Below, piece by piece: positions 9,201 through 63,958 of a stretch of DNA of 64,000 nt (positions within the stretch are counted from its first letter, which is position 1; every line of letters starts with the position of its first letter). Position numbers and translations under genes: made by a program. The DNA lies in NCBI GenBank assembly GCA_017454325.1, contig JAFTDG010000055.1, positions 8,018 to 72,017 of the forward strand, read 5' to 3'. The stretch is from Desulfovibrio sp. (GTDB taxonomy: Bacteria > Desulfobacterota > Desulfovibrionia > Desulfovibrionales > Desulfovibrionaceae). Under the pieces are notes generated by a model. That model worked only from the letters and a program-made list of their open reading frames with translations, had not been told where the DNA came from and did no database searches.

Positions 9201-9339
9201 GGAACGCATTTCCCTTTGGGAAAGCCGACAAAAGACATATTTTGCCAATCTGGAAACTCTGTTGAAGCAATACAGTGAACAACAGTCACGGCTTGAATCA
9301 CAAATCAATTCATTGAGTTCAACTTCTTCCAAGAAGTAA
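6289..9339 (+). CDS. fliD: flagellar filament cap protein (hook-associated protein 2), unusually long at 1016 aa
   Basis: The N-terminal coiled coil (VESTQLNRLEAWKSDWKLRYDAF) and C-terminal coiled coil (ISLWESRQKTYFANLETLLKQYSEQQSRLESQI) are FliD-like. The centre is S/T/G-rich. fliS lies immediately downstream. Confidence 0.85.
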   Translation: MAISISGSNAIWGLSDSGTNFDEVLVKLKQVESTQLNRLEAWKSDWKLRYDAFDKIIEQVGAAQNMLATLTNKNNFVTKNVVSSDANVITAVANASADDVQHTINVSQMASNAIWANTGNVFSSKTDLINTTGQAQTFSYRYAGRDYSMNVPANTTLDSFVSMVNSSAENPGIKISLVQTGGGYVFQIAGKSTGADNDLVIYSNNLVGMDATGSTSTWKTNNLLDMAAAVTDPTNYAYDLLMEDGNKFTVRIAGDKTNENLVTAINAKVGRNIASLDENGNLTLTDVAAMYRRDADTQSSFSTPSTTLTLGSTPADTTLPSAQTVTLQINDGITSSTRTLNIAGGTSLKDAALQIAQASGASTVHMGLNSAGAWEMSLANVESISFSSDDSGIGVTSSAGQMGTEITGSGVSKTFSTSVTISQDQLTQQLAGPDADPTKSFTYTLVKADGSTQNFSLAQNATYQNLLDELQNYGSIDSNTVTFTDQVTGFYLSGGGSGGGMDGVTVKTDAVTTIAGMTGTDTLESPPDLEYTIAVNDGTTRQFTYAGGTSMSAIVADMRSQGLTVDLVDADGNSIDTSAGIPTTGNYYLQFTDISYVSGPGISGQVTASSNWSIQNAANAKYQIDNWPVVMESSSNSVSDALEGVVFNIQGTGTANISVSTDIASVEQSIQNFLDAVNSVLLTIREYTSYDENKEVTTNDPDKIGSSNYSTSQLTTEKGGLLQGNYGVQLFNSRFTSLLGSAPPGFTSRTDASDILSGDTLANLANLGIKMDTTATSKTYGLLVIAPAASIASIQEMDESNYENMINNNLSAVVDFFCASGTGASSSPDFRYGSHVSGITKGGTYDVSYTVDATGNIEHVYVGGVEATRDTSQPGYYYSVASGDARGLSFQIDNLAEGAHSGQIRIKEGLIQTVNTFLKNELKFTDVNVSTTAGTNTDAIALKSQNGALMVLRDNYKKIMENIDKAIGKEEERISLWESRQKTYFANLETLLKQYSEQQSRLESQINSLSSTSSKK

Positions 9340-28985: not shown

Positions 28986-30293
28986 ATGAAGAATACCCTT
29001 CCCTATCCGACAAATCAGGCTACTGCCCCCAAACACGCCGAAGATACCTGCACTTCCAGCTTCAATCGGCATCGCTCTAAGCTTGCCTTTGACCGCCTAG
29101 TTGAAATGGGTGCTAAGATGGGGATGGAAAATCCCCTTTTTCTCTGTCATGAACGTGCTGCCAAGGCTACGACGCTCATTGGAGGCAGAGAATATCTCAA
29201 TTTTTCAACATATGATTACCTTGATATCAATGCACATCCAGAAATCACCGACGTTGTAACTAAAGCGGCAGCCTTGTATGGTACATCAGCTGGTGCCAGC
29301 CGCCTCGTCGGCGGTGAACGCCCCCCACACCGCGAACTAGAGCACGCCCTCGCAGATTTTTATGGGGTGGAAGACTGTATCGTCTACGTAAGTGGTCATG
29401 CCACCAATGTCTCTACATTGGGTTTCCTGTACGGTCCCCGTGACGCTATTTTCCACGACGGACTGGCACATAATTCACTGGTACAAGGGGCAAGGCTTTC
29501 AGGCGCTGCACGTTTTTCTTACACACATAATGATTGTGAAGCTCTTGAATTACTTCTCAAGACAAGGCGAGCAGAATATAAACGCGCAATCATAGTAACT
29601 GAAGGGCTTTTTAGTATGGATGGCAACATCCCAGATCTGCCCCGCATCATAGAACTGAAAAAAAAGTATGATTGCATGCTTCTAGTAGATGAAGCCCACT
29701 CACTGGGAGTTCTCGGCAAAACTGGTCGTGGTGCGCATGAATATTTCGATATTGATCCCACTGAAGTAGACATGTGGATGAGCACACTCTCCAAGTCTAT
29801 GTGCGGTTGCGGTGGTTTTATAGCTGGCCGGCACGATCTTATTGAATTCCTGAAATATGGTTCCCCTGGTTTTGTTTTTAGCGTAGGCATGCCGCCCATT
29901 GTAGCCGTAGCTTGCCGAAAGGCACTAGAAATACTAATACGTGAGCCTGAACGTGTGCATAAATTACAGAAAATATCACAATTTTTTGTACATTACGCCT
30001 CAGAACTCGGGTTGGATACCGGTTCTGCCCAGGGATATGCCATAGTGCCTATCATGATTGGTGATGCCATGGTTGCAGGTTTTTTGGCCAATGCACTGAT
30101 AAAACGCAATATCTATGTGATGCCAATCACATTTCCAGCCGTAAAAGAAGGCACAGATCGCCTACGTTTCTTCCTTTCTGCTTCGCATACGGAAGAGCAT
30201 ATTCGTAAAGCTCTGGATGCAGTAAAAGAAGAGCTGCCCATAGCATGGGAAAATGTGAAAAGATATATGCGTGAGCATGCCAATGAGCAGTAA
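28986..30293 (+). CDS. PLP-dependent alpha-oxoamine synthase (serine palmitoyltransferase / 8-amino-7-oxononanoate synthase family)
   Basis: YLNFSTYDYL, SRLVGGE, HNSLVQG, LLVDEAHSLG and the PLP-lysine motif STLSKS. An N-terminal extension of about 55 aa containing ENPLF resembles bacterial Spt. Confidence 0.85.
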   Translation: MKNTLPYPTNQATAPKHAEDTCTSSFNRHRSKLAFDRLVEMGAKMGMENPLFLCHERAAKATTLIGGREYLNFSTYDYLDINAHPEITDVVTKAAALYGTSAGASRLVGGERPPHRELEHALADFYGVEDCIVYVSGHATNVSTLGFLYGPRDAIFHDGLAHNSLVQGARLSGAARFSYTHNDCEALELLLKTRRAEYKRAIIVTEGLFSMDGNIPDLPRIIELKKKYDCMLLVDEAHSLGVLGKTGRGAHEYFDIDPTEVDMWMSTLSKSMCGCGGFIAGRHDLIEFLKYGSPGFVFSVGMPPIVAVACRKALEILIREPERVHKLQKISQFFVHYASELGLDTGSAQGYAIVPIMIGDAMVAGFLANALIKRNIYVMPITFPAVKEGTDRLRFFLSASHTEEHIRKALDAVKEELPIAWENVKRYMREHANEQ

Positions 30294-31581
30294 CGAGGCG
30301 CCAGCAGTTGCCTATGTACTGCTCTGGTTTCCACTTTCTTCAGAAACATTTATTTTCCGCGAAGTTGTGCAGCTTATGGCTGCGGGTCTGCCCATACGCG
30401 TCTACTCAATGTATGGAGAGCGCGTCGTTGGATGCAGCAAGGAAATGCGAGCATACCCTGGCTATGTGCAACGCATGGGTGTGAAAGCCATAGGACAAAT
30501 TTTCTGTGCGTTTTTCAAATTCCTGCGTAGTGCGCCGCGTAAAGTTATATGGCTTCTACGCCGGGGTTTTTTCCATCGCATGCGCAATCTTGAATCGCTG
30601 GGAGAAAATCTCTGGTGCTTTATGGCCGGTTTTTTACTGGCAGAATTGTGTATCCGCGACGGCATAAAGCTCATCCACGCCCCGTGGGCAAACGGACCGA
30701 CTACAGCAGCATGGGTTGCTTCACATTTAACAAACATTCCTTATGCTTTCACTGGACGGGCTGGCGACATATATCCTGAAGACGGGTTACTTCACGAAAA
30801 ATCAACAGATGCACTATTCATCCGCACCAATAACCACGCCAATGTTGACTGGCTGCGTCGTTTTTGCCCTGCTGGCCAAGAGACGAAAATTCATACCGTT
30901 TATAATAGCCTGACCTTCAATCCAAGTGGCTCATGTGCTATTGCTATGCGCCCCCCTTACCGTCTGTTGGCCGTAGGACGCTTTGCCCGCACCAAGGGTT
31001 TTCCTGATCTCTTAACGGCCATAGCCCGCCTTGTTCGGGAAAATGTGCCCGTGAGCCTCACACTTGTCGGGGATGGCCGCTGGCGTCGCAAACTTACCAA
31101 GATGCGTGACCGTTTAGGCCTCAAGGATATTGTTAACATGCCTGGATTCATTCCGCACGACCAGATATGTAATTATATGCTCGACCATGACATGCTTATA
31201 ATGCCAAGCGTAGTGCATGCAAATGGAGACAGGGATGGCATCCCCAATGTAATCATGGAAGCGCTCTCGCATGGCATGCCCGTTATTGCTACTGACGTAT
31301 GCGGTATTGCTGAAGTAATCCATAATGAAGAGACAGGCCTGCTAGTACCACAGCGTAACCCTCGTACTCTGGCTGATGCCATCCGCAAAATGCTTGCCAA
31401 TAGGGAGCAAGCACTGCATATGGCTGAAACGGGGAGAAAACTGGTAGCAGAAATGTTTGATAGTAAGCGTAATATTGCAAAACTGTTGCAACTATACACT
31501 AATGAATGTGCACGCTGCTGGCATGCTGAACCACAAAAAGCCGCCAGAACAGACGGAGCTGCAGCTGAAGGCCATGCATGA
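30271..31581 (+). CDS. GT4-family (group 1) glycosyltransferase, WcaL-like
   Basis: N-terminal VAYVLLWFPLSSETFIFREV. C-terminal GT-B motif DGIPNVIMEALSHGMPVIATDVCGIAEVI..EETG. It overlaps the preceding gene. Confidence 0.85.
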   Translation: MSMPMSSNEAPAVAYVLLWFPLSSETFIFREVVQLMAAGLPIRVYSMYGERVVGCSKEMRAYPGYVQRMGVKAIGQIFCAFFKFLRSAPRKVIWLLRRGFFHRMRNLESLGENLWCFMAGFLLAELCIRDGIKLIHAPWANGPTTAAWVASHLTNIPYAFTGRAGDIYPEDGLLHEKSTDALFIRTNNHANVDWLRRFCPAGQETKIHTVYNSLTFNPSGSCAIAMRPPYRLLAVGRFARTKGFPDLLTAIARLVRENVPVSLTLVGDGRWRRKLTKMRDRLGLKDIVNMPGFIPHDQICNYMLDHDMLIMPSVVHANGDRDGIPNVIMEALSHGMPVIATDVCGIAEVIHNEETGLLVPQRNPRTLADAIRKMLANREQALHMAETGRKLVAEMFDSKRNIAKLLQLYTNECARCWHAEPQKAARTDGAAAEGHA

Positions 31582-32591
31582 ATCACCGCCGGGTAGTATA
31601 TCTCGTCGTAAGTCTTGATGTCGAAGAAGAAGGACTTTTTGGAGGAAACTACGCCCGTCGCAACTATACAACGACCAATACGGTTGCGCTTGAACATCTT
31701 GTGCCACTGTGTCGCATTGGGGTTCGGCCCACACTATTCTGTGCATACAGTGTGCTGACGGATTCCTCCTCGCGTGACAGGCTTGCCCGCTTGTGTGAAG
31801 ATCATGGGGTAGAGCTTGGAGCACACTTGCATCATTGGAACACGCCCCCATTATCCCTGCATGGAAACGATTCTTCCCTACCAGACATAACAACAGAGGT
31901 TCCTGCTGCAGGAGTACACCCTACCCTTTTGGCTGAAAAGCTGTTTACCCTTATGAAAGCAGGGCAAAGCATACAGGGCACGCAGATGACTTCCTTCCGT
32001 ATGGGACGCTGGGATGCCCAACATTCCTTATGGCCATTATTGGCACAGGCCGGAATATTGGTAGATGCCTCTGTCCGTCCCTTGCACAGTGGCAGCACAG
32101 CTTCGGCCGGTCCTGACCACTTTGATGCCCCCAATACACCTTACTGGATCCCGACACCAAAAGGTAATCTCTTTGAAGTACCGCTGACTGTAACGCCATT
32201 GTTTCAGAAATTGCCCGCCCTTTTACGCCGTATCCCTGCTAAAGCAGGGATACAAATACGTGCCAGTTTACGACACTGGGGTGTAATGGCACTACTACCT
32301 GTGTATCACCCTCTATGGGCCATGAAATTTGTTACGTCACTGTATCTAGCGCGCGGTGGTCAAGTGCTTTCACTCACTTGGCATTCTTCCGAAATGATGC
32401 CTGGCTGCACACCGCATCTACCCGACAATGACGCAGTACAGTGCCTTCTGCGTAAGATTGACGACTGGCTTGAATGGTTACATACACACTACACGATACG
32501 TTGTCTGACCATGAGTGAGCTGATGAAAGAACTTGGGCCTACGTCACCAACATTTCAAGGCATTGGTGACTGGACCAGCATAAACATCTAG
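31578..32591 (+). CDS. polysaccharide deacetylase-like (WalW/CE4-like) protein
   Basis: LVVSLDVEEEGLF and GAHLHHWNTPP resemble the Asp and His metal-binding motifs of deacetylase-fold proteins. ATGA overlap with the upstream GT stop. Confidence 0.5.
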   Translation: MNHRRVVYLVVSLDVEEEGLFGGNYARRNYTTTNTVALEHLVPLCRIGVRPTLFCAYSVLTDSSSRDRLARLCEDHGVELGAHLHHWNTPPLSLHGNDSSLPDITTEVPAAGVHPTLLAEKLFTLMKAGQSIQGTQMTSFRMGRWDAQHSLWPLLAQAGILVDASVRPLHSGSTASAGPDHFDAPNTPYWIPTPKGNLFEVPLTVTPLFQKLPALLRRIPAKAGIQIRASLRHWGVMALLPVYHPLWAMKFVTSLYLARGGQVLSLTWHSSEMMPGCTPHLPDNDAVQCLLRKIDDWLEWLHTHYTIRCLTMSELMKELGPTSPTFQGIGDWTSINI

Positions 32592-32717
32592 CATAACTTT
32601 AGGACCAACCATAATATGGTGACAGCTCAACATCCAGACATGTTTTTCTTTTAAGCAGAAGATATGCCATCCAAACAATATAGCTAGGTATTATCAGTTT
32701 TGTCACGGAGTCTTGCC

Positions 32718-34043
32718 ATGTTGAAAACAACATTTTCGGGCAAACATCCCATCTTTTCGTCTGGATTACCCCATGTTGCCTATGTCCTTCTATGGTATCC
32801 CCTGTTCACACAACCCTTTATATTTCGCGAAGTTGAAGGCCTCAAGAATTTGCTGCCCCTTTCCGTATACAGTTTGTATGGATATAATCTGCGTCACTGT
32901 TCCACTGAAATGCGTGCGGCAGCAAATGAAACCCACACCTTCGGTATACGAACGCTGATACCTGTATTGGCAGAGTGCTTTCACTTTCTCGCGTTGCAAC
33001 CATTACGTTTCATGCGACTGCTGAAACATACACTTTTTTATCACTGGCACAGTTGGGAAATGTTGGGAGAAAACCTCTGGGCCTTCTTCATTGGCCTATA
33101 CCTAGGCCGTCTTTTTCAAGAAGCTGGCATTGACATGATATATGCGCCATGGCCCCGAGGTACGGCTACTGCAGCATGGGTAGCATCGCAAATTTCTGGT
33201 ATCCCCTTTGCCACAGCAGCACGTGGTGATAATTTAGAACCGGCAGATCCGGACCTTGGTGCCAAACTGACAGCTGCCAGTTTTATACGAGCCAATAATG
33301 CAGCAGACAAGCAGCGTATTGAGCAGTTCGACAAAGGTCAGGCCAAGGGGAAGGTGGAACTCATTTATAACAGCCTGACTTTACCTCCAGACACATTCAG
33401 AGAACCATCGCAACCAATACCGCAGCTCATGCCGCGTCCAGTGCAAATTCTAGCACTGGGCCGATTTGATGTTACCAAAGGTTTTGACATACTCATTCAG
33501 GCATGTGCAATCCTGCGTAACAAGGGGCTTGACTTCAGACTCACTTTGGCTGGCGGAGGAGGTACCGTTATGGGACTGGGACGCATGGAGGCACAAATTC
33601 TGAAACTCCGCAGAGAGTTACAGCTAGAGAATCTTGTGCATTTGCCAGGACTTGTCTCCCATAACGAGCTCCCCAACATGTTGCATGCGCACGATATCTT
33701 TGCCGCTCCCTGTATTGTTCACTCTTCAGGGCGTCGCGACGGCATTCCCAATACTGTCATTGAAGCCCTAGCATACGGCCTACCTGTGGTGAGTACCACG
33801 GTCAATGCTCTTCCTGAGGTTGTACGCAATAATGAAACCGGATTAGCTGTGCCTCCGGGGGATCCATCAGCTCTCGCTGATGCCCTTTTACGTCTAGCTG
33901 ACGACGCCCCCTTGGCAGCTCGACTGGCCCGCAACGGAAAAGACTTGGCACTAAAAATGTTTGATCCTGATCGTAACAACCAGCAGTTAGCAGATATATT
34001 CATAAGGTATTACACACAGCAGGAGAGTACATGTGCGGCATAG
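32718..34043 (+). CDS. GT4-family (group 1) glycosyltransferase, paralogue of 30271-31581
   Basis: VAYVLLWYPLFTQPFIFREV at the N-terminus. DGIPNTVIEALAYGLPVVSTTVNALPEVV.NNETG at the C-terminus. ATG 32718 follows GGAG (the track start at 32700 is a TTG). Confidence 0.85.
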   Translation: MLKTTFSGKHPIFSSGLPHVAYVLLWYPLFTQPFIFREVEGLKNLLPLSVYSLYGYNLRHCSTEMRAAANETHTFGIRTLIPVLAECFHFLALQPLRFMRLLKHTLFYHWHSWEMLGENLWAFFIGLYLGRLFQEAGIDMIYAPWPRGTATAAWVASQISGIPFATAARGDNLEPADPDLGAKLTAASFIRANNAADKQRIEQFDKGQAKGKVELIYNSLTLPPDTFREPSQPIPQLMPRPVQILALGRFDVTKGFDILIQACAILRNKGLDFRLTLAGGGGTVMGLGRMEAQILKLRRELQLENLVHLPGLVSHNELPNMLHAHDIFAAPCIVHSSGRRDGIPNTVIEALAYGLPVVSTTVNALPEVVRNNETGLAVPPGDPSALADALLRLADDAPLAARLARNGKDLALKMFDPDRNNQQLADIFIRYYTQQESTCAA

Positions 34044-35947
34044 CAGGCATTTGCCGTCTAGACAACACCCCCCTTACACCTAGTTCCACCCGCTGGGTGA
34101 TAGCTATGACAGACCGTATGGTCCACCGTGGACCAGATGGGCAAGGGGTCTGGACACATGGTCCTGTAAGCCTTGGTCATCGGCGACTTTCCATCATTGA
34201 CTTATCGGGCGGTAGTCAGCCAATGCATAGTCATGATGGACGATTAACCGTCGTATTTAACGGTGAAATCTATAATTTCCCTGAACTCAGGAAAGAACTC
34301 ATTGCCGCAGGTCACCGTTTTAGAACACAGTCAGATACAGAAGTTCTTCTTGAGAGCTATCGTCACTGGGGAACGGATTGTCTATCCCACTTTGACGGAA
34401 TGTTTGCCTTCGCCCTTTGGGACGCTACACACCATCGACTATTTTGTGCACGTGATCGTTTTGGAAAAAAACCTTTTTTTTATACAGTACAACACGGTCA
34501 GCTGTATTTCGCCTCGGAGCTTTCGGCACTGGAACAAGTTAAGGAGCTTCAGTTTACGATAAACCCTCAATCCGTCACTCGCTACCTTGCCTATGAATAT
34601 GTACCCGCCCCGCAAACCATGTATGCAGAAGTGTGCAACCTGCAACCCTCGCATCTTCTCCTGCTGGAACACGGGGATATACATATTCGTCGATACTGGG
34701 ATATGCCCATTCCAGACGAGCAAGATACACGAGATATAACTACACTATGCGAAGAGCTGCGCCACTTAATGACACGTGCAGTGCAAATGCGCATGATCAG
34801 TGACGTCCCGCTTGGTGTTTTTCTTTCAGGAGGTATTGATTCCACCATCATAGCCGGCCTCATGGCCACCCAGTCATCAGCCCCAATCAAGACATTTTCC
34901 ATTGGTTTTACCGAATCCGCATATGACGAATCTCGCTACGCACGTACCGCTGCCAAGACTTTTAGTACAGACCACCATGAACATGTACTCTCAGCAAAAG
35001 ACTGCGCGGATATCCTTCCCGGCATTATCAACGGTATGGATGTACCCATGGCCGACGCTTCAGTAGCGCCCACATGGTTACTTTCCAGTGTCACACGCGA
35101 GAAAGTCACCGTCGCTTTGGGCGGCGACGGTGCGGACGAACTTTGGGCAGGGTACGAACACTACATCGGTTTCAAGATTGCAGAATGGTATAATAAGCTG
35201 CCAAACAGCTTGCGCCGCCATATCATTGAACCTCTTGCGCAAATACTTCCTTCTTCTGCGGGCTATATCAATCCCCGCCTTGCCGTACAGACATTTTTAC
35301 AGGCAGCTCATGCGCCAGCTTGGCAGCGTGTGCAAAGCATGCTCACAGCTTTGACTTTAGATATGCAAAGAGAGGTCCTTTCCGCATCCTTTGTGTCACA
35401 GATTCCTGATTTTTTCTCTCCAGAAATACTCTTTGCTCCAACGCATACACAATACAAGCACTGGTTGCCCCGTGAAGCCGCTTCTCCTCTAGCGCGAGCT
35501 TTTCATGTCTATGTACGTCAGTTTTTACCAGAAGATATCCTTGTCAAGGTCGATCGGTGCTCTATGTTGCACAGCTTGGAAGTCCGCGCACCGTTTTTGG
35601 ACCGGGACGTGGCGATATTTGTTGCGCGCCTGCCAGTGCGCTACAAGTTGCACGGATTCAAGCGTAAATGGTTACTTAAGAAGGCATTTGCCGATCTGTT
35701 GCCAAATGAAATTTTGCATCGTAACAAACGTGGCTTCCAAATCCCCGTAGCACAATGGCTCCGAGGTCGTATGCGTCCACTTATGGAAGACATGCTTAAT
35801 GTTGACACGTTACGAAAACAAGGAATTTTTAACCCTCAGGCTGTACGAAAACTAATGGATCTACACATTTCTGGCCTGACAGACCTACGTAAGCCTCTAT
35901 GGACATTACTGGTTTTTCAACTTTGGTGGCAAGCTCACAAAGCTTGA
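34031..35947 (+). CDS. glutamine-hydrolysing asparagine synthase-family amidotransferase (AsnB-like)
   Basis: MCGIAG Ntn nucleophile, RGPD, and the SGGIDS PP-loop. It overlaps the upstream GT by 13 nt. Confidence 0.9.
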   Translation: MCGIAGICRLDNTPLTPSSTRWVIAMTDRMVHRGPDGQGVWTHGPVSLGHRRLSIIDLSGGSQPMHSHDGRLTVVFNGEIYNFPELRKELIAAGHRFRTQSDTEVLLESYRHWGTDCLSHFDGMFAFALWDATHHRLFCARDRFGKKPFFYTVQHGQLYFASELSALEQVKELQFTINPQSVTRYLAYEYVPAPQTMYAEVCNLQPSHLLLLEHGDIHIRRYWDMPIPDEQDTRDITTLCEELRHLMTRAVQMRMISDVPLGVFLSGGIDSTIIAGLMATQSSAPIKTFSIGFTESAYDESRYARTAAKTFSTDHHEHVLSAKDCADILPGIINGMDVPMADASVAPTWLLSSVTREKVTVALGGDGADELWAGYEHYIGFKIAEWYNKLPNSLRRHIIEPLAQILPSSAGYINPRLAVQTFLQAAHAPAWQRVQSMLTALTLDMQREVLSASFVSQIPDFFSPEILFAPTHTQYKHWLPREAASPLARAFHVYVRQFLPEDILVKVDRCSMLHSLEVRAPFLDRDVAIFVARLPVRYKLHGFKRKWLLKKAFADLLPNEILHRNKRGFQIPVAQWLRGRMRPLMEDMLNVDTLRKQGIFNPQAVRKLMDLHISGLTDLRKPLWTLLVFQLWWQAHKA

Positions 35948-44693: not shown

Positions 44694-46025
44694 ATGATCT
44701 TCGCCAAGCAGCCAATTTTTATTCTTTGGGATGAGTCCCATATCTGGGGACTCATGGCTTGGCGCGCCGTACGCGCACTGGGGCTGCCCTGCCGTCTAGT
44801 TAAGGGGAATGAAATAGCCGAAGGTACGCTTTTACGCAAGCCGCAAAACACGCGCTCGGGTTGTACACATACAGGTATGTTGCTGGTACCTGGTGGCAAT
44901 GCCCGCCTCAAGGCATACGCTCTTGGTTCTGCTGGTCGCGAAGCCATTCGCTACTGGCTCGCAGCTGGTGGGAACTATCTCGGCTTCTGTGGTGGTGCCG
45001 GTCTCGCCCTGACACAGACTCAACCGGACGAAGGCCTGAACATTTGCCCCTGGACACGAGCAAACTACCCCCAACGCCTGAATCATCTAATATCAGGCCA
45101 TGTACAGTCACATGTTACTCTCGGTCACGCATTCTCTCCAAAATCTCCTGTACCTGCAGATGAACTACTCTCTTTACCCGTATGGTGGCCGGGACAATTT
45201 GCCCAACAAAAATGCCCAAATGTACAGGTGCTTGGGGTTTGCCACAGACCAGACAAAGATTTTTGGATTGCCGATTTACCCATGCAACAACTGCCCAGCG
45301 GTACTATTGAACATTGGCGAACCCTGTATGGCGTCAACCTTTCAGCAGATTTTCTGGAAGGGCAACCTCTTGTGATCACTGGAACTTATGGTTCTGGTCG
45401 TTATGTCTTGAGCTATTCACACCTGGAAACTCCGCACAGTCCAATGGCCAACACATGGCTGGCCCAAATACTCGCTAATATGACACAACTTGTCCCCAAA
45501 AACGACCAAGTGCCCCTGTGGCAACTACGACACCCACATATATCATGGCCCGATTACCGCGAACGTACTCTACTGATGGATGCCCTTCGGCATATGCGTG
45601 ACCTCCTTGACCTCGCGGTGGAACACCATCTTTTCTTTGCACGTACCCACTGGCTGTGGGGCTGGCGCACAAGTCTGCCCGGCGCGAGCTGTAACCATTT
45701 GCACGCTGCACTATGTTCTGTGCTGGCGCTAAAACCCACATCCGCAGCGCGAATCTACTGGAGAGAGATGGCGACACGATTTGCCGCACTGGAACACATT
45801 TTTATGTCAGGTGCAGAAGAATATTTTTTAGCCTGCCGTTTAGCAGAAACACTTAGCCCCTCATTGCCCGATACTGTGGAAAAACGCTGGTTGGATCATC
45901 AACGCGAATCCTTATTTGGCCATCCCATGTACGGTGGCGGCATTCTATCAGAACTGCTTTCCATTATTGAGGAAATCATCTACCTCTCACAAGATAATGC
46001 CTTGACAGATACAGATGTTCTTTGA
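44694..46025 (+). CDS. hypothetical protein with an N-terminal class-I glutamine-amidotransferase-like (BPL_N-like) fold and a helical C-terminal half
   Basis: PIFILWDES...LLVPGGNA...GGNYLGFCGGAGLAL resembles the strand-loop pattern of the BPL_N/GATase1-like family. This is pattern recall only and was not searched. Confidence 0.4.
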   Translation: MIFAKQPIFILWDESHIWGLMAWRAVRALGLPCRLVKGNEIAEGTLLRKPQNTRSGCTHTGMLLVPGGNARLKAYALGSAGREAIRYWLAAGGNYLGFCGGAGLALTQTQPDEGLNICPWTRANYPQRLNHLISGHVQSHVTLGHAFSPKSPVPADELLSLPVWWPGQFAQQKCPNVQVLGVCHRPDKDFWIADLPMQQLPSGTIEHWRTLYGVNLSADFLEGQPLVITGTYGSGRYVLSYSHLETPHSPMANTWLAQILANMTQLVPKNDQVPLWQLRHPHISWPDYRERTLLMDALRHMRDLLDLAVEHHLFFARTHWLWGWRTSLPGASCNHLHAALCSVLALKPTSAARIYWREMATRFAALEHIFMSGAEEYFLACRLAETLSPSLPDTVEKRWLDHQRESLFGHPMYGGGILSELLSIIEEIIYLSQDNALTDTDVL

Positions 46026-46306: not shown

Positions 46307-46335
46307 TAGACAAATAACACGATATCATTTATAAT
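46307..46335 (+). promoter_or_regulatory. putative sigma-70-type promoter TAGACA-N17-TATAAT
   Basis: Perfect -10 hexamer at 46330-46335 and a 4/6 -35 match at 46307-46312 with a 17-nt spacer. It lies about 44 nt upstream of ATG 46379. Confidence 0.4.
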
Positions 46336-49829: not shown

Positions 49830-51293
49830 ATGCTCAACACGCATACCTTACATATGTACAATCTGATTTGCTTATTACCGCTCATCTTGAGTGTTGCTCT
49901 TGTCGGCTGTTCCAGCAAGGCGGGAATCAAATCACCTGAATTGCCTGCTAAGCACTGGTTAGAAGAAGCGCCAGGCGTGCCAGTGGAAAACAAGTCCAAA
50001 CTTGAGGCTGTATTGCCCAACCTATATAATCCACAAAAAAATTTTTCGTTTGAAGATTGTGTCTTTCTGACAATCCAACAGTCTCCTCAGTTGGTCAACA
50101 GCGCCGTAGAAATTGAGATCAAACGGCTTGCTCAAACTAACGCAGTCCTTAAATATCTACCTGAGCCCCGGATAGCACTGACCGTTTCCAACAACATCAC
50201 TCGTTACAATATGAACACGCGTGATACCCCTAATGACTATGGACAACCCAAAGCACATATAGGTTTTTATGCGCCTTTTCCCAACCCAGTTGCAACGTAT
50301 TTTGAACACCAGGCACAGAAAGCCATGGTAAATGTCGCCATCTCGACCCACCGCAAGGCAGTGGGCACAGCTATCCGAGAGATAGCACAGGCATACCTCA
50401 AATTGCAGGCACGTCAAAAAATTGTGGAGGCGCAAAAAGCCCTGCTCCCCCTGGGTAAAGAGCTGATCGCCTATTGGAAACAGGTAGAAAATATTGAAGG
50501 CCGTCAAGGTGTGTCTCTGAACGCAGCCATGCAGCATCAGCGTGAATTGGAGTTAGAGCTGGAACAAAGCAAAATGCAGGAGACCATGCAACGCACTCAG
50601 CTCAAAATCCTTGCTGGGGTTGAACCGCAGCAACGTTTTGCTGTGGATACCAAGAGTGCTGATACCATTCTTCAAGGTTTCGACGGGCGTAAACTCACAT
50701 GGGAAGAACGCTGGCCAGCTACAGAAGACGAGCTTTTGTTGCGTGCGCAGGTACTGTTGGCAGACTACAATATTATGCTGGCTTGGGCTCAGTATGTGCC
50801 TGATATGTCCATCCACCTAAATCAGTCTCCACCGTCAGGCCAGTATCAACCAACACACGGCACAGATGATACCTTTTTGCATCTGAATTTTGATTTCCCG
50901 CTCATCGACTGGGGTCGTCGCCATCGTGGAGTTCAGACAGCACGTATGCAGAAAGCACAGGCTTTTCACGATATAGCCCGCAAGCGCACAGACTACTCAA
51001 ATAAATGGTTACAAGCCGAACAAAATGTTACCCTTGCGGAAACACAGCTCAAACTGGCCAAAACACGTTTCGACACGGCCGACATGCGCTTCAAGGAGGC
51101 TAGTATCTCCTTCAAAGAAGGACTTGTGGAACTGCCTTTCCTGGCAGAAGCGCAGGAAAATATGGTGAAGGCCCGGATAGCCCATATTATGGCCGAGCTT
51201 GATTACAACCTGGCGAAGTTGGGCTGGATGTTTGTAGCGAATGTGCTACAGGAACGCTTTCTGGGGTTGCCTGCCAAGGAGGTGGTGCAATAA
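49830..51293 (+). CDS. TolC/NodT-type outer-membrane efflux lipoprotein
   Basis: Lipobox SVALVGCSS. Two-repeat OEP-like helical/beta pattern. ATG 49830. The track ORF extension overlaps the upstream gene. Confidence 0.7.
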   Translation: MLNTHTLHMYNLICLLPLILSVALVGCSSKAGIKSPELPAKHWLEEAPGVPVENKSKLEAVLPNLYNPQKNFSFEDCVFLTIQQSPQLVNSAVEIEIKRLAQTNAVLKYLPEPRIALTVSNNITRYNMNTRDTPNDYGQPKAHIGFYAPFPNPVATYFEHQAQKAMVNVAISTHRKAVGTAIREIAQAYLKLQARQKIVEAQKALLPLGKELIAYWKQVENIEGRQGVSLNAAMQHQRELELELEQSKMQETMQRTQLKILAGVEPQQRFAVDTKSADTILQGFDGRKLTWEERWPATEDELLLRAQVLLADYNIMLAWAQYVPDMSIHLNQSPPSGQYQPTHGTDDTFLHLNFDFPLIDWGRRHRGVQTARMQKAQAFHDIARKRTDYSNKWLQAEQNVTLAETQLKLAKTRFDTADMRFKEASISFKEGLVELPFLAEAQENMVKARIAHIMAELDYNLAKLGWMFVANVLQERFLGLPAKEVVQ

Positions 51294-52222
51294 TGATGTC
51301 TATATCTCTTTCTCGCAGAATGCGACATCCACTCCTTGCAGTGCTAACATGTTCACTCTCTGTTATGCTTTTTTCAGCGCCACTTACTGCAGCCGAAAAC
51401 GGAACTATTCTTACCGGTAAGGTGGTTACCACAGTAACGCGTGCTGTGCCCCTACCCTTCCACGCTGTAGTTGACGAAGTACTGGTTAAACCTGGTACAC
51501 CCGTTTCCAAAGGCACGCCGCTTTTGCGTTATCATCTTCAAGACGAGGCTGAACGAGCACTGCAACGTGAAGTGACTTCAGGTGCCGGTACTGAAGGACT
51601 ACGAGGGCAGGTATTAAATCTTGAACGTGAATTGACCGAGGCCGCAGCCCAGCGTAACAAAGCCCGCCAGCTGGCTGCTTCAGGCCTTGGCTCGTCACAG
51701 GCTTCCAACCGCCAAGAAAGCGTTGTAAAGTCTCTTCGTGAACGCATAGAACTGCTGCGTATAACCATAGACAAACAGGAACGGAATTTTGCCCTGCGCC
51801 TTGAGGAGCTAAGCAAACATTTTGCTACCACCATTAAGGCAGGAGAGACTCTGCCTGACACGCTGACACTGACCTCACCCATTGATGGGTATGTCCTCTT
51901 TCTGGATGTTGCACTCAACCCGGGTTCACTATTGCCCGGAGGAAGTACGCCCATAAGTGTCGGCAAACTTGACCCGGTGCTTATTCAGGTACCTGTTTAC
52001 GAAGCAGAGATCAGCGGCATCAAGGAAGGTGATGCTGTTGTGGTGGAAATTCCCTCACTGCATGACAAGAAATTTAAGGGAACAGTAAATGAGATTTCTT
52101 GGGTCTCCAACGACATGAACGTATCCACCCCATCGTATTATACGGTGGAGGTTACTGTGCCCAACCCCAACCTCGAACTCAAGCCTGGCTTCAAGGCGGT
52201 AGTGCGTTTTACGGGCAAATAA
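51293..52222 (+). CDS. HlyD-family periplasmic adaptor (membrane fusion protein)
   Basis: Signal/anchor sequence, lipoyl-like VDEVLVKPGTPVSKGTPLLRY, a coiled-coil hairpin of about 90 aa, SPIDGYV, and a beta-barrel C-terminus. TAATG overlap with the OMF gene. Confidence 0.75.
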   Translation: MMSISLSRRMRHPLLAVLTCSLSVMLFSAPLTAAENGTILTGKVVTTVTRAVPLPFHAVVDEVLVKPGTPVSKGTPLLRYHLQDEAERALQREVTSGAGTEGLRGQVLNLERELTEAAAQRNKARQLAASGLGSSQASNRQESVVKSLRERIELLRITIDKQERNFALRLEELSKHFATTIKAGETLPDTLTLTSPIDGYVLFLDVALNPGSLLPGGSTPISVGKLDPVLIQVPVYEAEISGIKEGDAVVVEIPSLHDKKFKGTVNEISWVSNDMNVSTPSYYTVEVTVPNPNLELKPGFKAVVRFTGK

Positions 52223-52231
52223 GGCCCTGGA

Positions 52232-53665
52232 ATGAAGCTAAAAAGCATCCCTCGCCGGCTGGGCTTCATTCTGGGTGCGCAGTGGACGCGCGATTTAGCA
52301 TGGACCGTCTTTACCATCCTTCTGGCACGTCGTAGTCCAGATATTCTTGGGCAGATTGTTCTGGCGCTTACATTCGGTTATTTGGTCAAAACCGTTGCCG
52401 ATGTAGGGTTGAATGATTTTTTACTGTCCACTTTTGCACGCAGGGAGGGGCACCCCCGGGCCCTTCTGGGCGAAGTGACTTGGCTCAAGTTGGCCGTCTT
52501 ATTGCTGGCATTGGGAGTAACATGGCTCATCACCGGCTGGCAGGGCTATACACCTGAATTGCGCCTGGTAGTCATGTGTATCGCCGCTGGTCTAGGACTG
52601 GACGGCGTGAGTGATTCCTTCTTTGCGCTGTGCCAGGCACGGGGCCGTCAGGATGTGGAAATGCGCATCCGCATCCCCTCCGCACTTCTGGGGCTTGGTT
52701 TCGGCATTGCCTGTGTGCTGCTGGACGCTCCGCCCCTTGTCATTGCCCTCTACAAAGTGATTGAATCACTGCTCTGCATTGCCTTTGCCCTTGCTGCTCT
52801 GGAGCGCAATCCTCTTGCTGGCGTGGGCCTTGCTGGAATGAAGGATCTTGCACACCAGATGAAAAACGGCCTTGTTTTCACCTGCATGGCAGCCTGCGCT
52901 ATGTTTTATAATAAAATCAACGTGATTTTTCTCAAACAATACGGTGGTAATGCCGACGTAGGTGGTTACGGAGTCGCCTGGGAAACCGTGGAAGGTCTAT
53001 CGGTTCTCGTTTCGGGAGCACTCCTTGGCAAGGTAATCTTTCCACTGCTGGCACAATATTGGCAGCAGGACAGAAATGCCTTCCAGCAACTAGCTGGACA
53101 GACCGCACGTTCGCTATGGGCAGCGGCCTTGCCAATCATTTTTTTGATTTGTGTAGAAAGCGACCGTTTTTTACCACTGGTCTATGGTGAAAACTACCAG
53201 TCAGCCGTAACTGCACAACGACTGCTCACGCCATGCCTCGCCACGGCATTTCTGCACAATCTGGCAGCCTACGCTATGATAGGTATGCGCCGGCACCATC
53301 TGTTACTCGTCTTTTACTGCAGTGGCCTTGTTTGCAATCTGATCTGCTGCATGACGCTTATCCCTCGTATGCCACTGGAAGGTGCTGCCCTGTCTTTAAC
53401 CATAACCAAAGTGTTTGTGGCTGTGCTGACTGTAGGTTTTTTTCAATACACAGCACACCCCATGTCGTTCTGCCAATGGCTGTGCATGCTTCTTACTGCC
53501 TCCATCAGCGTGACCCTATGGTGGAGTGTGAACTATATAGCTCCACGTGAAGTCGCAGAGCTGTGCGGCCTTGCACCACTGTTAGTACTCTTCTGGTACT
53601 GGCGGCCACCACCTCCCTTCGAATCATCGACACCTAAAAACAATGACAAGACTTGCACTGCCTGA
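52232..53665 (+). CDS. MOP-superfamily (Wzx-like) oligo/polysaccharide flippase
   Basis: 477 aa with a 12-14 TM profile and N-terminal and central patterns typical of polysaccharide biosynthesis/flippase proteins. It starts 9 nt after the adaptor gene. Confidence 0.65.
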   Translation: MKLKSIPRRLGFILGAQWTRDLAWTVFTILLARRSPDILGQIVLALTFGYLVKTVADVGLNDFLLSTFARREGHPRALLGEVTWLKLAVLLLALGVTWLITGWQGYTPELRLVVMCIAAGLGLDGVSDSFFALCQARGRQDVEMRIRIPSALLGLGFGIACVLLDAPPLVIALYKVIESLLCIAFALAALERNPLAGVGLAGMKDLAHQMKNGLVFTCMAACAMFYNKINVIFLKQYGGNADVGGYGVAWETVEGLSVLVSGALLGKVIFPLLAQYWQQDRNAFQQLAGQTARSLWAAALPIIFLICVESDRFLPLVYGENYQSAVTAQRLLTPCLATAFLHNLAAYAMIGMRRHHLLLVFYCSGLVCNLICCMTLIPRMPLEGAALSLTITKVFVAVLTVGFFQYTAHPMSFCQWLCMLLTASISVTLWWSVNYIAPREVAELCGLAPLLVLFWYWRPPPPFESSTPKNNDKTCTA

Positions 53666-53672
53666 CAAGTTC

Positions 53673-54224
53673 TCACGGTCTGTCCTTTATTCCTGGGGCA
53701 ACAGGGCTGAAAAACTTCTCTATAGCCGCATGTTCCAACTGTAATAATTTGTATTTTCTGTCTATACCACCTGTGTAGCCAATGAGATGACCATTTTTCC
53801 CTACAACACGATGGCAAGGGATGATAATGGAGATTCCATTGTGGCTCACAGCTCCGCCAACAGCTTGCGCTGACATGCTTTGCATCCCCCGTTTTTTTGC
53901 GATGTTATCTGCGAGAAGGCCGTAGCAGACGGTCTTCCCGTATGGAATTTGCTGAAGCAGATGCCAAACACAAAGGCGAAATTCTGTACCAATTATATGA
54001 AGATGTGGTGTAAAATCAGGGCGTTTGCCAGAAAAGTATATATCCAGCCAACGTTTCGTTTCCACGATTACCGGAGTTTCCCTTACCCCGTGTTCTGTAT
54101 TGAAGCTAACAGGGGAATTTTTTGTCCCTTCAAACCATACTTCAGTCAGCCCCACGGCATCGGCAGTGAGATAAATCAACCCAAGAGGCGATTGATATGT
54201 GGACTTAACGCGCTTTGCCACCAT
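53673..54224 (-). CDS. ogt: methylated-DNA--protein-cysteine methyltransferase
   Basis: IIIPCHRVV active site and the YGGG-type helix-turn-wing context. Confidence 0.9.
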   Translation of the reverse strand: MVAKRVKSTYQSPLGLIYLTADAVGLTEVWFEGTKNSPVSFNTEHGVRETPVIVETKRWLDIYFSGKRPDFTPHLHIIGTEFRLCVWHLLQQIPYGKTVCYGLLADNIAKKRGMQSMSAQAVGGAVSHNGISIIIPCHRVVGKNGHLIGYTGGIDRKYKLLQLEHAAIEKFFSPVAPGIKDRP

Positions 54225-60879: not shown

Positions 60880-61950
60880 ATGGTAGATCATATTTATTTC
60901 GATGTGGAGAAATGTGAACTCCATCTGCTTGACCAGCGGTTCCTGCCTGAGCGGGAGGAATGCTTCATCTGCCGTTCCGTAAACGACATCATAGAGGCTC
61001 TGCAAACCATGGTCGTACGCGGAGCGCCGGCCATTGGCGTTACTGCCGCCTGGGGATGCGTTCTAGCCCTGCTCGACGCCGACGGATCAAACTGGATGCC
61101 CCATCTGGAAACGGCGCTCGAGCATTTAGCCAATGCCCGCCCAACTGCAATCAATCTGCGTTGGGCCGTTACACGCATGCGTGCATGCCTGCAACAACTC
61201 ACAAATAAGGGGGATGTCGACCACGACGCCCTGCTGTCGGCATTTTTGGCAGAAGCAGCAACAATACAGCGGGAAGATGTGGAAATTTGTCGTGCCATTG
61301 GCCGCCATGGTGGAGCATTGTTGCACGATGGCGACACGGTGTTGACGCATTGTAATGCGGGTGCTCTTGCCACGGCGGGATACGGAACCGCCTTAGGCGT
61401 TGTGCGTGGCGCGGTGGACGCCGGGAAACACATATATGTTATTGCTGATGAAACGCGGCCATTCCTTCAGGGGGCACGTCTAACCGCATGGGAACTTCAG
61501 AAAGACAACATTCCCGTTACTGTGGCCTGTGACAATGCCTGTGCCCTGCTCATGGGTAAAGGACTTGTTCAATGCGTGGTGGTAGGTGCAGACCGCATCG
61601 CCGCCAACGGGGATACTGCCAACAAGATAGGAACCTGTGGCGTGGCATTGCTTGCACACCACTTCAATCTTCCCTTCTATGTGGCTGCTCCTCTCTCCAC
61701 CATTGACCTCTCCACTTCCGAGGGAAGCAGTATTCCCATTGAACAACGCCCAGAACGAGAAGTGACACATGTGGGTCAGGTACGTATATGCCCCGAAGGC
61801 GTGCCCGTATACAATTTCGCCTTTGACGTCACCCCTGCGGACTACATCAGCGGCATTGTCACCGAGATGGGAGTGCTTCGCCCCCCATATACCACATCTA
61901 TTCGTACAGCCTTCAGGACAAAAACGACAAGGACTCCTTCTGCATTATAG
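60880..61950 (+). CDS. mtnA: S-methyl-5-thioribose-1-phosphate isomerase (eIF-2B alpha/beta/delta-like family)
   Basis: [52 protein letters not shown] 60880 follows AGGAGG. Confidence 0.85.
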
Positions 61951-61963
61951 TTTCACGCCAACC

Positions 61964-63958
61964 ATGATACCGGTATCAACTACGGCTGATGCCAGATTGG
62001 ATGATACAATGGCAGTCAAAGAATGTATTCTTATTGTAGGATCAGACCACACTGTAGCAAGTACGCAAAGCTATGGTCCTGACGGTAAAAGCAATGGGGT
62101 AGAACGCCTCATTGTCCACTGGGACGGCTGGGAAGCGCCCAAGGATGAAATTGCCCTGCAAGCCCGTCTGCGTGACGAATTGAAAACTATCAGGGCTGAA
62201 CACGCTGCCTGGGCTTTTGATTTTGGGCATTTGCGCCTGGCAGGAAAAGAGGTGCAGCGTTGGCTCCAATGTGGTGCAAATCTCTCCATGTGGTGGTGTT
62301 CACTGCTCTACGAACGACATCCCAAAATGACACCTGCCCTCTATACCCTCTATAAGCTGCGTGCCCTTGAACGCCTCATGGATGCAGAAGCCTGTTGTTC
62401 TCTGCGTGTACATGGCGGCGACAGCGCTCTACGGCGAGCCCTGAGTCTTTTATGTATGTCAAGCCACCGCGTATTTTCCGAAGAGGATGAGACGATACCT
62501 TCACGTCCATCAAACAGCAAGTTACGCCTACTGTATGATGCACTTCCAGCCCCTCTGCGGGCCGTACTTCGCTATGTCCACTGGTACTGGACTGTACGCC
62601 GTCGCCTGCGGCCTTTGCCTTGCAACGCAGCCCTGACAGAAACCGCTGGCTCCCCCGCAACTATCGTAACGTACTTTCCCAATGTGGATATGGAAGCGGC
62701 AAAACAGGGACGTTACCGCTCCCGCTACTGGGAAGCGTTGCACGATGCACTCAACAAGAAAGCGGAAAAAGAAGGCGGACAATTTGTCCGTTGGCTGTTC
62801 ATACGCTTTCCCGCGCCCCAGCTCAGCCTTCGACAGTGTATCGCATTGCGCGACCGCTTTCGTAGTGCTGGCCTAGACGGGGCTAGTTTTCATTATTTAG
62901 AGGAATTTCTTGGCACACGCGATCTCTTGGCCGCGTGGTTGCGTTATCTACGGCTGAGTCTGGCTTCATGGAAGCTAGAGAAAAAGGTGCGCCCCTCTTT
63001 CCGCATGGCTGGTTCACGTCTGAATTTCTGGAATGAGCTTGGCATCTACTGGGTAGAATCCTTCAGAGGCTGGCGCTGTCTTGAGCGCTGTCTCCAGCAT
63101 CAGGCCTTCCAGCGTTATGCATCCATAGCCGGGCTACAACGATGGACACTCTTTCCCCTAGAAAATTGTCCCTGGGAACGCATGCTTACACAGACCATGC
63201 ATGAAGCTGGCAACGGTCCTGTCATCGGAGCACAGCACTCCACTATCCGGCCAACGGACTTCCGCTTTTTTGATGACCCCCGTGCTTTTACTGGCAAAGA
63301 TGCCTGTTTTCAACCTGACGTTATTCGGGGCAATGGCCTGTCTGCATACGGGCAGTGGTTTGAAGCGGGCATGCCAGATGCCCGCCTGGGTATTGTTGAA
63401 GCGCTGCGATATTTATATCTGGCAGGCTCTACTCCAACAGCCTCTCCGCATAGTCCGCAGAAAGATATGCCCACTACACCACGCCACTTGCTCATTGTTA
63501 CCAGCTTTTTCAGGGATGAAACCGAGGCACACCTCGCCCTGGTTGCCCGTGCGCTCACAGAGGGTCTGCTGGAGAAATGGGAAGTGCGTATTAAACCGCA
63601 CCCCTATCTGCCTGTGCAGGAAAACCTGCGCATGCTTCTGGGCAAACGTGCCGCCAATATTACTATTATTGAGGACGGCACCATTGCCGACCAGCTGAAA
63701 CCCGGTGTGATGGTATGGGCTTCAAATTCCACCACCGTAGCACTTGAAGCGGCCATCAAAGGCCTACCGGTCATGGTCATGCTACCTTTGAACGATTTTG
63801 ACCTCTGCCCCTTGCAGGATGTACCCCAACTACCACGTACCGGTACCGTAGAAGACGTCAGACGTGCGCTGGCCAACCCTACGCCCTTGGTTCTGCCCCA
63901 AGACTATCTAGAATTGAACGCAGACCTGCCACGCTGGAAGAAATTGCTCGGACTATAG
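61964..63958 (+). CDS. large hypothetical protein with a GT-B-like/capsule-type polymer-transferase C-terminal region (putative surface-carbohydrate biosynthesis)
   Basis: C-terminal LLIVTSFFRDE...IKPHPY...VWASNSTTVALEAAIKGLPVMVM resembles the nucleotide-sugar/CDP-alcohol transferase Rossmann half. ATG 61964 lies just after the mtnA stop. The track ORF extension overlaps mtnA. Confidence 0.4.
   Translation: MIPVSTTADARLDDTMAVKECILIVGSDHTVASTQSYGPDGKSNGVERLIVHWDGWEAPKDEIALQARLRDELKTIRAEHAAWAFDFGHLRLAGKEVQRWLQCGANLSMWWCSLLYERHPKMTPALYTLYKLRALERLMDAEACCSLRVHGGDSALRRALSLLCMSSHRVFSEEDETIPSRPSNSKLRLLYDALPAPLRAVLRYVHWYWTVRRRLRPLPCNAALTETAGSPATIVTYFPNVDMEAAKQGRYRSRYWEALHDALNKKAEKEGGQFVRWLFIRFPAPQLSLRQCIALRDRFRSAGLDGASFHYLEEFLGTRDLLAAWLRYLRLSLASWKLEKKVRPSFRMAGSRLNFWNELGIYWVESFRGWRCLERCLQHQAFQRYASIAGLQRWTLFPLENCPWERMLTQTMHEAGNGPVIGAQHSTIRPTDFRFFDDPRAFTGKDACFQPDVIRGNGLSAYGQWFEAGMPDARLGIVEALRYLYLAGSTPTASPHSPQKDMPTTPRHLLIVTSFFRDETEAHLALVARALTEGLLEKWEVRIKPHPYLPVQENLRMLLGKRAANITIIEDGTIADQLKPGVMVWASNSTTVALEAAIKGLPVMVMLPLNDFDLCPLQDVPQLPRTGTVEDVRRALANPTPLVLPQDYLELNADLPRWKKLLGL

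Follow-up and report, generated by a model that had tools for sequence, protein, structure and literature searches.

Tripartite machines, in which a periplasmic membrane-fusion protein (MFP, or adaptor) works with a TolC-type outer-membrane factor (OMF) and an inner-membrane partner, play a central part in drug efflux, toxin secretion and envelope biogenesis, and the inner-membrane partners are thought to fall into a few classes; AaeAB/FusC-type pumps also use MFPs. Wzx-type flippases classically work with PCP and OPX proteins, which bear no relation to HlyD and TolC. In a review, tripartite systems are described with ABC, RND and MFS proteins as the partners (PMC8277102), and HlyD-like adaptors with TolC have also been described around a GT2 synthase, in the systems for cyanobacterial cellulose (PMC8892547) and for rhizobial mixed-linkage glucan, BgsA-BgsB-TolC (PMC13438883). 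Here we describe a locus of Desulfovibrio sp. in which the genes for an OMF and an MFP are followed by one for a MOP-superfamily, Wzx-type protein and preceded by one for a protein resembling a polyketide synthase (PKS); the window that was analysed is a stretch of 64,000 nucleotides (assembly GCA_017454325.1, contig JAFTDG010000055.1, positions 8,018 to 72,017 of the forward strand). The MOP-MFP-OMF gene architecture is real, strongly conserved in Desulfovibrio sensu stricto and apparently undescribed; in full-text searches of the literature, no paper was found that pairs a MOP/Wzx protein with an MFP and an OMF. A preliminary description of the locus had held that the known partners are ABC, RND and MFS pumps only; these are the classes that the review lists, but the GT2-synthase systems make the list incomplete.

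The closest working analogy is the MFS-type EmrAB-TolC system (PDB 8zal, 8zar). Both it and the module have a TolC-family channel, an adaptor with hairpin, lipoyl and beta-barrel domains but no membrane-proximal domain, an adaptor gene that precedes the transporter gene, and an inner-membrane protein of about 14 transmembrane (TM) helices with short periplasmic loops, driven by an ion gradient (the helix number and loops being predicted, and the gradient presumed, for the module); EmrA is also among the structural matches of the module's adaptor. The module differs in that its inner-membrane protein is of the MOP/PST and not the MFS type, its adaptor lacks a conserved N-terminal TM anchor and looks cleaved, its OMF is a lipoprotein encoded in the same operon-like unit, and that unit includes a biosynthetic gene of the PKS-like kind. 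MacAB-TolC, of the ABC type (PDB 5nik, 9qgy, 3fpp), supplies the best structural match to the adaptor: the top Foldseek matches were the MacA structures 9qgy_G, 3fpp and 5nik_D (TM-score 0.63), hairpin length is similar, and the hairpin-tip motif of the adaptor aligns to the RLS motif of MacA (RQQRLAQTKAVS versus KARQLAASGLGS). However, the module has no MacB-type ABC protein, and its adaptor has neither the membrane-proximal domain nor the TM helix of MacA.

Three further systems share some traits with the module. The DevBCA-HgdD exporter of heterocyst glycolipids, the analogy drawn in the preliminary description, is an MFP plus TolC-type system for a lipid made by PKS- or fatty acid synthase-like enzymes, whereas the module has no DevC permease, DevA ATPase, glycosyltransferase (GT) or ketosynthase (KS). 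For lack of these proteins, and with the adaptor reaching 37 bits on the DevB model TIGR02971, whose cut-off is 129, a DevBCA-like glycolipid exporter was rejected; the PKS-derived glycolipid of the preliminary description is not supported. In the synthase-dependent HlyD-TolC systems (cyanobacterial cellulose Xcs and BgsA-BgsB-TolC; PMC8892547, PMC13438883) the MFP-TolC pair likewise serves a partner outside the ABC, RND and MFS classes, in this case for the export of a glycan, but that partner is a processive GT2 synthase, where the module has a flippase-type MOP protein and no GT. Wzx/Wzy pathways with Wzc (PCP) and Wza (OPX) also tie a MOP/PST flippase to periplasm-spanning and outer-membrane parts, and relatives of the module's MOP subfamily are found in glycan clusters; the corresponding parts of the module, however, are of the HlyD/MacA and TolC types rather than PCP and OPX, and no Wzy or GT gene adjoins it.

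A colinear four-gene module

The PKS-like gene (hereafter the AT gene, after its acyltransferase domain) and the OMF, MFP and MOP genes form a colinear four-gene module (Table 1). Between the end of the AT gene at 49780 and the ATG of the OMF gene at 49830 there is a 49-nt gap; the TAA stop of the OMF gene overlaps the ATG of the MFP gene as TAATG (51291-51295), and 9 nt separate the MFP stop from the MOP ATG. These values were read directly from the sequence and agree, as do the positions of the last three genes, with those given in the preliminary description. The longest open reading frame (ORF) for the OMF begins at a TTG at 49731, but orthologue alignments favour the ATG at 49830. The promoter-like site upstream of the AT gene, which lies inside an AT-rich 353-nt spacer 5' of the module, is the sole strong site of its kind, and no notable terminator-like site was found between 46379 and 53665. 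The four genes are probably transcribed together.

Table 1. Coordinates of the module genes and the upstream promoter-like site within the window.
Feature	Position	Strand	Basis
Promoter-like site TAGACA-17-TATAAT, 11/12	46307..46335	+	Consensus match only
KS-less type I PKS-like protein (AT-carrier-Rossmann-like-DH-like), 1133 aa	46379..49780	+	Pfam Acyl_transf_1, PP-binding
TolC-family OMF, lipoprotein type, 487 aa	49830..51293	+	Pfam OEP
MFP (periplasmic adaptor), 309 aa	51293..52222	+	Pfam HlyD_D23, HlyD_3
MOP-superfamily (PST/Wzx-type) polytopic inner-membrane protein, 477 aa	52232..53665	+	Pfam Polysacc_synt_3, Polysacc_synt

At the 3' side, the MOP gene converges with ogt (53673-54224, minus strand), and the ends of the two genes (53665-53673) are separated by 7 nt that hold no terminator-like hairpin. 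At the 5' side, a 443-aa protein is encoded between valS and the module (44694-46025, plus strand), its only match being a short one to BPL_N (E 3.5e-6); membership of this gene in the module was rejected, the gene being common only to a metagenome-assembled genome (MAG) of the same species. An Rfam scan of the window gave no match, and among the roughly 40 of its ORFs that were scanned, each of at least 150 aa, there was no ABC, RND or MFS gene.

Properties of the four proteins

The 477-aa protein matched Polysacc_synt_3 (PF13440; E 2.2e-18, 67 bits against a cut-off of 23) and Polysacc_synt (PF01943; E 3.8e-8, 33.5 bits against 28.2), and Pfam and NCBIfam gave no MFS, MATE, ABC or RND match. 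It was accordingly rejected as an MFS or MATE protein on the hidden Markov model (HMM) results, and its earlier assignment to the MOP/Wzx type was upheld, with no sign of an MFS or other known pump partner. Among the NCBIfam models, all below threshold, Wzx_EPS scored 52.7 bits (cut-off 800; E 2.8e-14), the MOP flippase model 32 bits (cut-off 273; E 6.6e-8), MurJ 20 bits (cut-off 236) and SpoVB 17 bits (cut-off 372), so that by NCBIfam cut-offs the protein belongs to none of the characterised equivalogs WzxE, MurJ, Wzx_EPS and SpoVB. A PDB sequence search returned nothing useful. Hydropathy is compatible with about 14 TM helices joined by short loops, and NCBI labels the orthologues "oligosaccharide flippase family protein". 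Seven tryptophans (positions 24, 84, 98, 296, 395, 416 and 430) are invariant in the clade that carries MFP and OMF genes and are replaced by Leu, Gln, Tyr or other residues in relatives without an MFP; W430 falls in a predicted periplasmic loop, and the other six in predicted TM helices. These clade-specific residues may reflect a changed substrate or a changed lipid-facing surface.

The MFP matched HlyD_D23 (E 6e-18) and HlyD_3 (E 2e-13) in Pfam, and its AlphaFold (AF2) model (pLDDT 82.8) displayed alpha-hairpin, lipoyl and beta-barrel domains, in keeping with the lipoyl-bearing, hairpin-containing MFP of the preliminary description. The hairpin helices span residues 101-129 and 135-177, and the model stops after the beta-barrel domain, leaving the protein without a membrane-proximal domain. 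EmrA and HlyD likewise have no such domain, and their pumps have short periplasmic loops only. Beyond the MacA structures, Foldseek matches included EmrA, MexA, AcrA and ZneB, and the matches overall had E-values of 1e-13 to 1e-15.

The MFP hairpin tip carries K123-x3-L127-x6-S134 (KxxxLxxxxxxS), a motif that is invariant in one orthologue alignment (A4) and whose K123 is retained in at least 90% of a wider set (A3). It is a KLS version, with Arg replaced by Lys, of the RxxxLxxxxxxS (RLS) motif, which MacA, AcrA and HlyD use to bind the tip of TolC (PMC3391258). Because the tip motif is conserved and aligns to the RLS motif, the predicted docking of the MFP onto the co-encoded OMF is well supported. 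At the N-terminus of the MFP, a variable hydrophobic h-region precedes a conserved AxA|AE, and there is neither a lipobox nor a conserved TM helix; the region looks like a cleavable signal peptide and not an anchor, and the MFP thus appears to be a secreted, soluble periplasmic protein.

The OMF matched Pfam OEP (E 2.9e-30) in two repeats and, more weakly and under their cut-offs, TIGR01844 and TIGR01845. The lipobox previously noted for this protein is present as LVGC; its (A/G)C, and with it the cysteine, is conserved in 54 of 54 orthologues, among which the mature N-terminus KSPELPA(K/R)HWLEEAPGVPVENK is nearly invariant.

Pfam recognised an acyltransferase (AT) domain (Acyl_transf_1, E 7e-33) and a carrier domain (PP-binding, E 8e-6) in the PKS-like protein and nothing further; there was no KS domain, and the N-terminal 77 aa, the middle 300 aa and the last 293 aa remained without a Pfam match even at E 10. 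The AF2 model (pLDDT 81) has a Rossmann-like middle and a double-hotdog-like C-terminus, and aligns over its full length to the reducing type I PKSs PsoA, Pks16, MAS and CalA3. The domain order is read as an N-terminal linker-like region, a malonyl-type AT, a carrier, the Rossmann-like middle and a dehydratase (DH)-like double hotdog. AT residues G163-H-S-L-G167, R190 and H271 and carrier Ser497/498 were invariant in 29 orthologues, with helix II beginning at residue 500 in the model; the active-site residues of the AT and the carrier are intact. The putative DH residue His868 was not conserved, being present in fewer than 90% of the same sequences. Thus the "AT-CP-DH" label given to this protein earlier is approximately correct: the AT and carrier were borne out by Pfam, whereas the DH had no Pfam match and is suggested by a C-terminal profile match to the CurJ dehydratase (E 0.002) and by the double-hotdog-like model. 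The protein has no KS and is unable to extend a chain alone. Orthologue lengths range from 861 to 1486 aa across species, and some of the orthologues span about half of the window protein.

Distribution and ancestry of the module

Close homologues came exclusively from Desulfovibrio of gut, rumen and termite sources, the nearest locus being in a reindeer MAG of the same species (L052, 97% identity). A MOP-anchored scan, in which a MOP profile was run against one genome per bacterial species, yielded 80 loci; wherever MOP identity was at least 59% and enough upstream sequence was available (54 loci), the AT, OMF, MFP and MOP genes were found in the same order and orientation without exception. 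An MFP-anchored scan of metagenome contigs yielded 49 loci, all at 51% identity or more. The MOP gene was next after the MFP gene in 47 of these, and the other two contigs (L086 and L116) end within about 70 nt of the MFP gene. The module is present in essentially every Desulfovibrio sensu stricto locus inspected (about 100 contigs), and the AT gene is colinear with the other three wherever the flank is long enough.

The sequences flanking the module vary. The rlmN gene lies downstream in about half of the loci, and valS with the BPL_N-like gene lies upstream in the same-species MAG alone. The endosymbiont Ca. Desulfovibrio trichonymphae, whose reduced genome measures 1.41 Mb, has all four genes intact, and there the module follows rimM. 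Across the roughly 100 loci the MOP gene shows a far tighter coupling to the MFP and OMF genes than to any of its flanking genes. A conserved stretch of some 1 kb, without a Pfam match and with ORFs on both strands, was observed between the MFP and MOP genes in L039 (6208-6690) and L043 (9283-9831), and directly upstream of the MOP gene in L053 (69-1076) and L054 (3053-3943).

In about 55 species all four genes remain intact under purifying selection. MOP is the most conserved module gene (mean p-distance 0.23, versus 0.29 for rlmN), and the PKS-like protein is by far the fastest-evolving member (mean p-distance 0.53); in the nearest species, identity was 62% for the PKS-like protein versus 88% for the MOP protein. 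The protein distance matrices of the four module members correlated at 0.95-0.97 with one another and at 0.85-0.91 with rlmN, and partial correlations controlling for rlmN were 0.74-0.90, values that are confounded by linkage and phylogeny. This mirror-tree correlation lends weak support to a functional coupling.

An exhaustive HMMER search delimited a discrete MOP subfamily, in which full-length relatives at 31-42% identity (E 1e-50 to 1e-96) were followed by a fall-off in score. Loci of such relatives, from Solidesulfovibrio, Desulfolutivibrio, Syntrophobacteraceae and Desulfobaccales, were without AT, OMF or MFP genes; at 35-42% identity their neighbours encode GT1, GT2 and GT4 glycosyltransferases, RmlA, a sulfotransferase, a GDSL esterase and radical-SAM/SPASM proteins. 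The absence of MFP and OMF genes beside these distant homologues refers to Pfam scans of the immediate neighbours at eight loci; HMMs built from the clade's own OMF and MFP alignments were insensitive and missed even a generic RND adaptor in L054. The MOP protein thus stems from common flippases of glycan clusters, and its link with an adaptor and a TolC-type channel is a derived trait of one genus-level clade, because the MOP relatives of other genera lie among GT genes and not beside MFP or OMF genes. Outgroups of the MFP were sought in order to trace an ancestral pump, but the homology search and the metagenome scan returned clade members only, at 51% identity or more.

Possible roles of the flippase-type protein

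The explanation that we favour, with confidence and doubt about evenly balanced, is that the four genes constitute one operon-like module, specific to Desulfovibrio sensu stricto, which makes and exports an envelope or extracellular product, and in which the MOP protein stands in the place of the pump. The KS-less PKS-like protein would load a malonyl-type unit onto its own carrier and supply or modify an acyl part at the cytoplasmic face; the MOP protein would move the product, or a lipid-linked form of it, across the inner membrane by means of an ion gradient; and the secreted MacA-like adaptor would assemble through its hairpin tip on the lipoprotein TolC-type channel, forming a conduit from the periplasm to the outside. 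The MOP protein could replace an ABC, RND or MFS pump either by direct docking, in the way that EmrB sits beneath the EmrA ring, or by passing its substrate on at the periplasmic face. We infer the protein-protein contacts, the substrate and the energy source in this scheme.

The MOP protein is placed in the pump position because its gene lies directly after the adaptor gene, is the only transporter gene and encodes the most conserved member of the module, and because the adaptor has no copy of the domain that RND- and MacB-type adaptors use on large periplasmic pump domains. The acrB, macB and emrB genes sit directly after their adaptor genes, as the MOP gene does here. A more specific form of the proposal, which we offer tentatively and regard as rather doubtful, is a docked tripartite complex, in which a hexamer of the secreted three-domain adaptor would sit on an energised MOP flippase and open the lipoprotein TolC-type channel. 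If such a complex exists, a product primed by the PKS-like protein would pass through a single device all the way from the cytoplasmic side to the cell surface, and the MOP protein would represent a further class of inner-membrane partner and the first Wzx-like protein coupled directly to a TolC duct.

Several observations weigh against the placing of the MOP protein in the position of the pump. The genetic coupling of the MFP, OMF and flippase genes, and the apparent absence of this architecture from the literature, stand as the preliminary description had them, whereas its envelope-spanning complex was overstated, gene order being the sole ground for a contact between the MOP protein and the MFP. 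The adaptor is seemingly cleaved and soluble, with neither a membrane-proximal domain nor a conserved TM helix, and the hydropathy profile gives the MOP protein only short periplasmic loops; on both counts a docking surface is not evident. A signature of docking was sought in periplasmic-loop residues specific to the clade and none was found: on a rough topology, clade-invariant residues that differ in relatives without an MFP occupy 3 of 67 periplasmic-loop positions and 37 of 295 TM positions, placing them mostly in the TM helices. Given the soluble adaptor, the short loops and this lack of loop enrichment, the substrate may instead be handed off on the periplasmic side, or the pump may be encoded at an unlinked site. 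Moreover, two loci (L053 and L054) hold MOP orthologues of 60-62% identity with no adjoining AT, OMF or MFP gene, and a single clade supplies all of the co-occurrence evidence, so that the conservation is in part inherited synteny.

A pump encoded elsewhere belongs to a rival explanation, under which the genes would cluster because they share one pathway and not because their products form one complex. The MOP protein would then be an ordinary flippase that brings a lipid-linked precursor to the periplasmic leaflet, while the adaptor and OMF would use an ABC (MacB- or DevCA-like), RND or MFS pump from another locus, or would export another component of the same product. We consider this division of labour unlikely, though a serious contender. 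It would account for an adaptor whose closest structures are those of MacA, itself the adaptor of an ABC pump, as well as for the apparent solubility of the adaptor, the lack of an obvious MOP-facing surface on it and the lack of a distinguishing periplasmic-loop signature in the MOP proteins of the clade; the MFP genes of the PrsDE type I secretion system offer a parallel, as they lie in a rhizobial polysaccharide cluster with Wzx yet use their own ABC protein. It fits less well with the rule that MFP genes nearly always adjoin their pump gene, as the sole membrane-transporter gene adjoining the adaptor gene in about 100 loci is that of the MOP protein, and no pump of the kinds invoked was among the scanned ORFs of the window. 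Nor does the adaptor have the membrane-proximal domain that MacA- and RND-type adaptors use on their pumps, and retention of the intact module in a 1.41-Mb reduced genome likewise speaks against separate machines.

The glycan-cluster setting of the MOP relatives at 35-42% identity, with their GT1, GT2, GT4, rmlA, sulfotransferase, GDSL and radical-SAM genes, raises another alternative, namely that the adaptor and OMF replace the PCP and OPX proteins (Wzc and Wza) of a Wzx/Wzy-type pathway. The MOP protein would flip undecaprenyl-linked repeats, a polymerase encoded elsewhere would join them, and the MFP-OMF tube would export a polymer decorated with acyl or malonyl groups. Export of cellulose and mixed-linkage glucan through HlyD-like proteins and TolC has been described, and the window carries surface-carbohydrate genes at other positions; yet those precedents use processive synthases and not flippases, the module contains no glycosyltransferase, polymerase or initiating transferase in about 100 loci, and the nearest GT genes are some 14 kb away with housekeeping genes between. 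This substitution seems to us quite improbable. A slimmer chance still attaches to the absence of any functional link, in which case a pump-less, efflux-type OMF-MFP pair would merely lie beside an unrelated flippase gene through synteny inherited within one genus. Although the origin of the co-occurrence evidence in a single clade and the split of the MOP gene from the others in two loci would be expected under such a scenario, the four genes stay together while both flanks change, the OMF, MFP and MOP genes are joined by a stop/start overlap and a 9-nt gap, and all four are intact under purifying selection in about 55 species, with MOP more conserved than rlmN. Without a pump, an adaptor-channel pair should also tend to decay, especially where the genome is reduced.

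Should a Wzx-type flippase prove to be a tripartite partner, the list of such partners would be widened, and the passage of flipped products, lipid-linked or acylated, through the periplasm and the outer membrane would have a new explanation. In gut Desulfovibrio, a genus associated with host sulfide exposure, the module marks an envelope function that is conserved and probably important; the reduced endosymbiont keeps the module, and rlmN is less conserved than the flippase. The PKS-like gene suggests an exported metabolite or a surface lipid as the product.

Some other loci in the window also deserve mention. A cluster of five genes (28986-35947, plus strand) lies about 10 kb from the module, with housekeeping genes between. 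Its first gene encodes an alpha-oxoamine synthase of the BioF/Kbl/serine-palmitoyltransferase family that scores below every NCBIfam cut-off, and there follow two GT4 genes, a 337-aa ORF without a match and an AsnB-type amidotransferase gene whose product resembles the XrtA/PEP-CTERM amidotransferase; the cluster may direct synthesis of an amino-lipid, a glycolipid or a surface glycan. The flagellar cap protein FliD (6289-9339, plus strand) is 1016 aa long, with FliD_N at residues 17-112, FliD_C at 617-996 and a large insert without an assigned domain between them. Finally, a 729-aa protein with no Pfam match (61769-63958, plus strand) scored 722 bits, where the cut-off is 250, on TIGR04326, the model named "surface carbohydrate biosynthesis protein".

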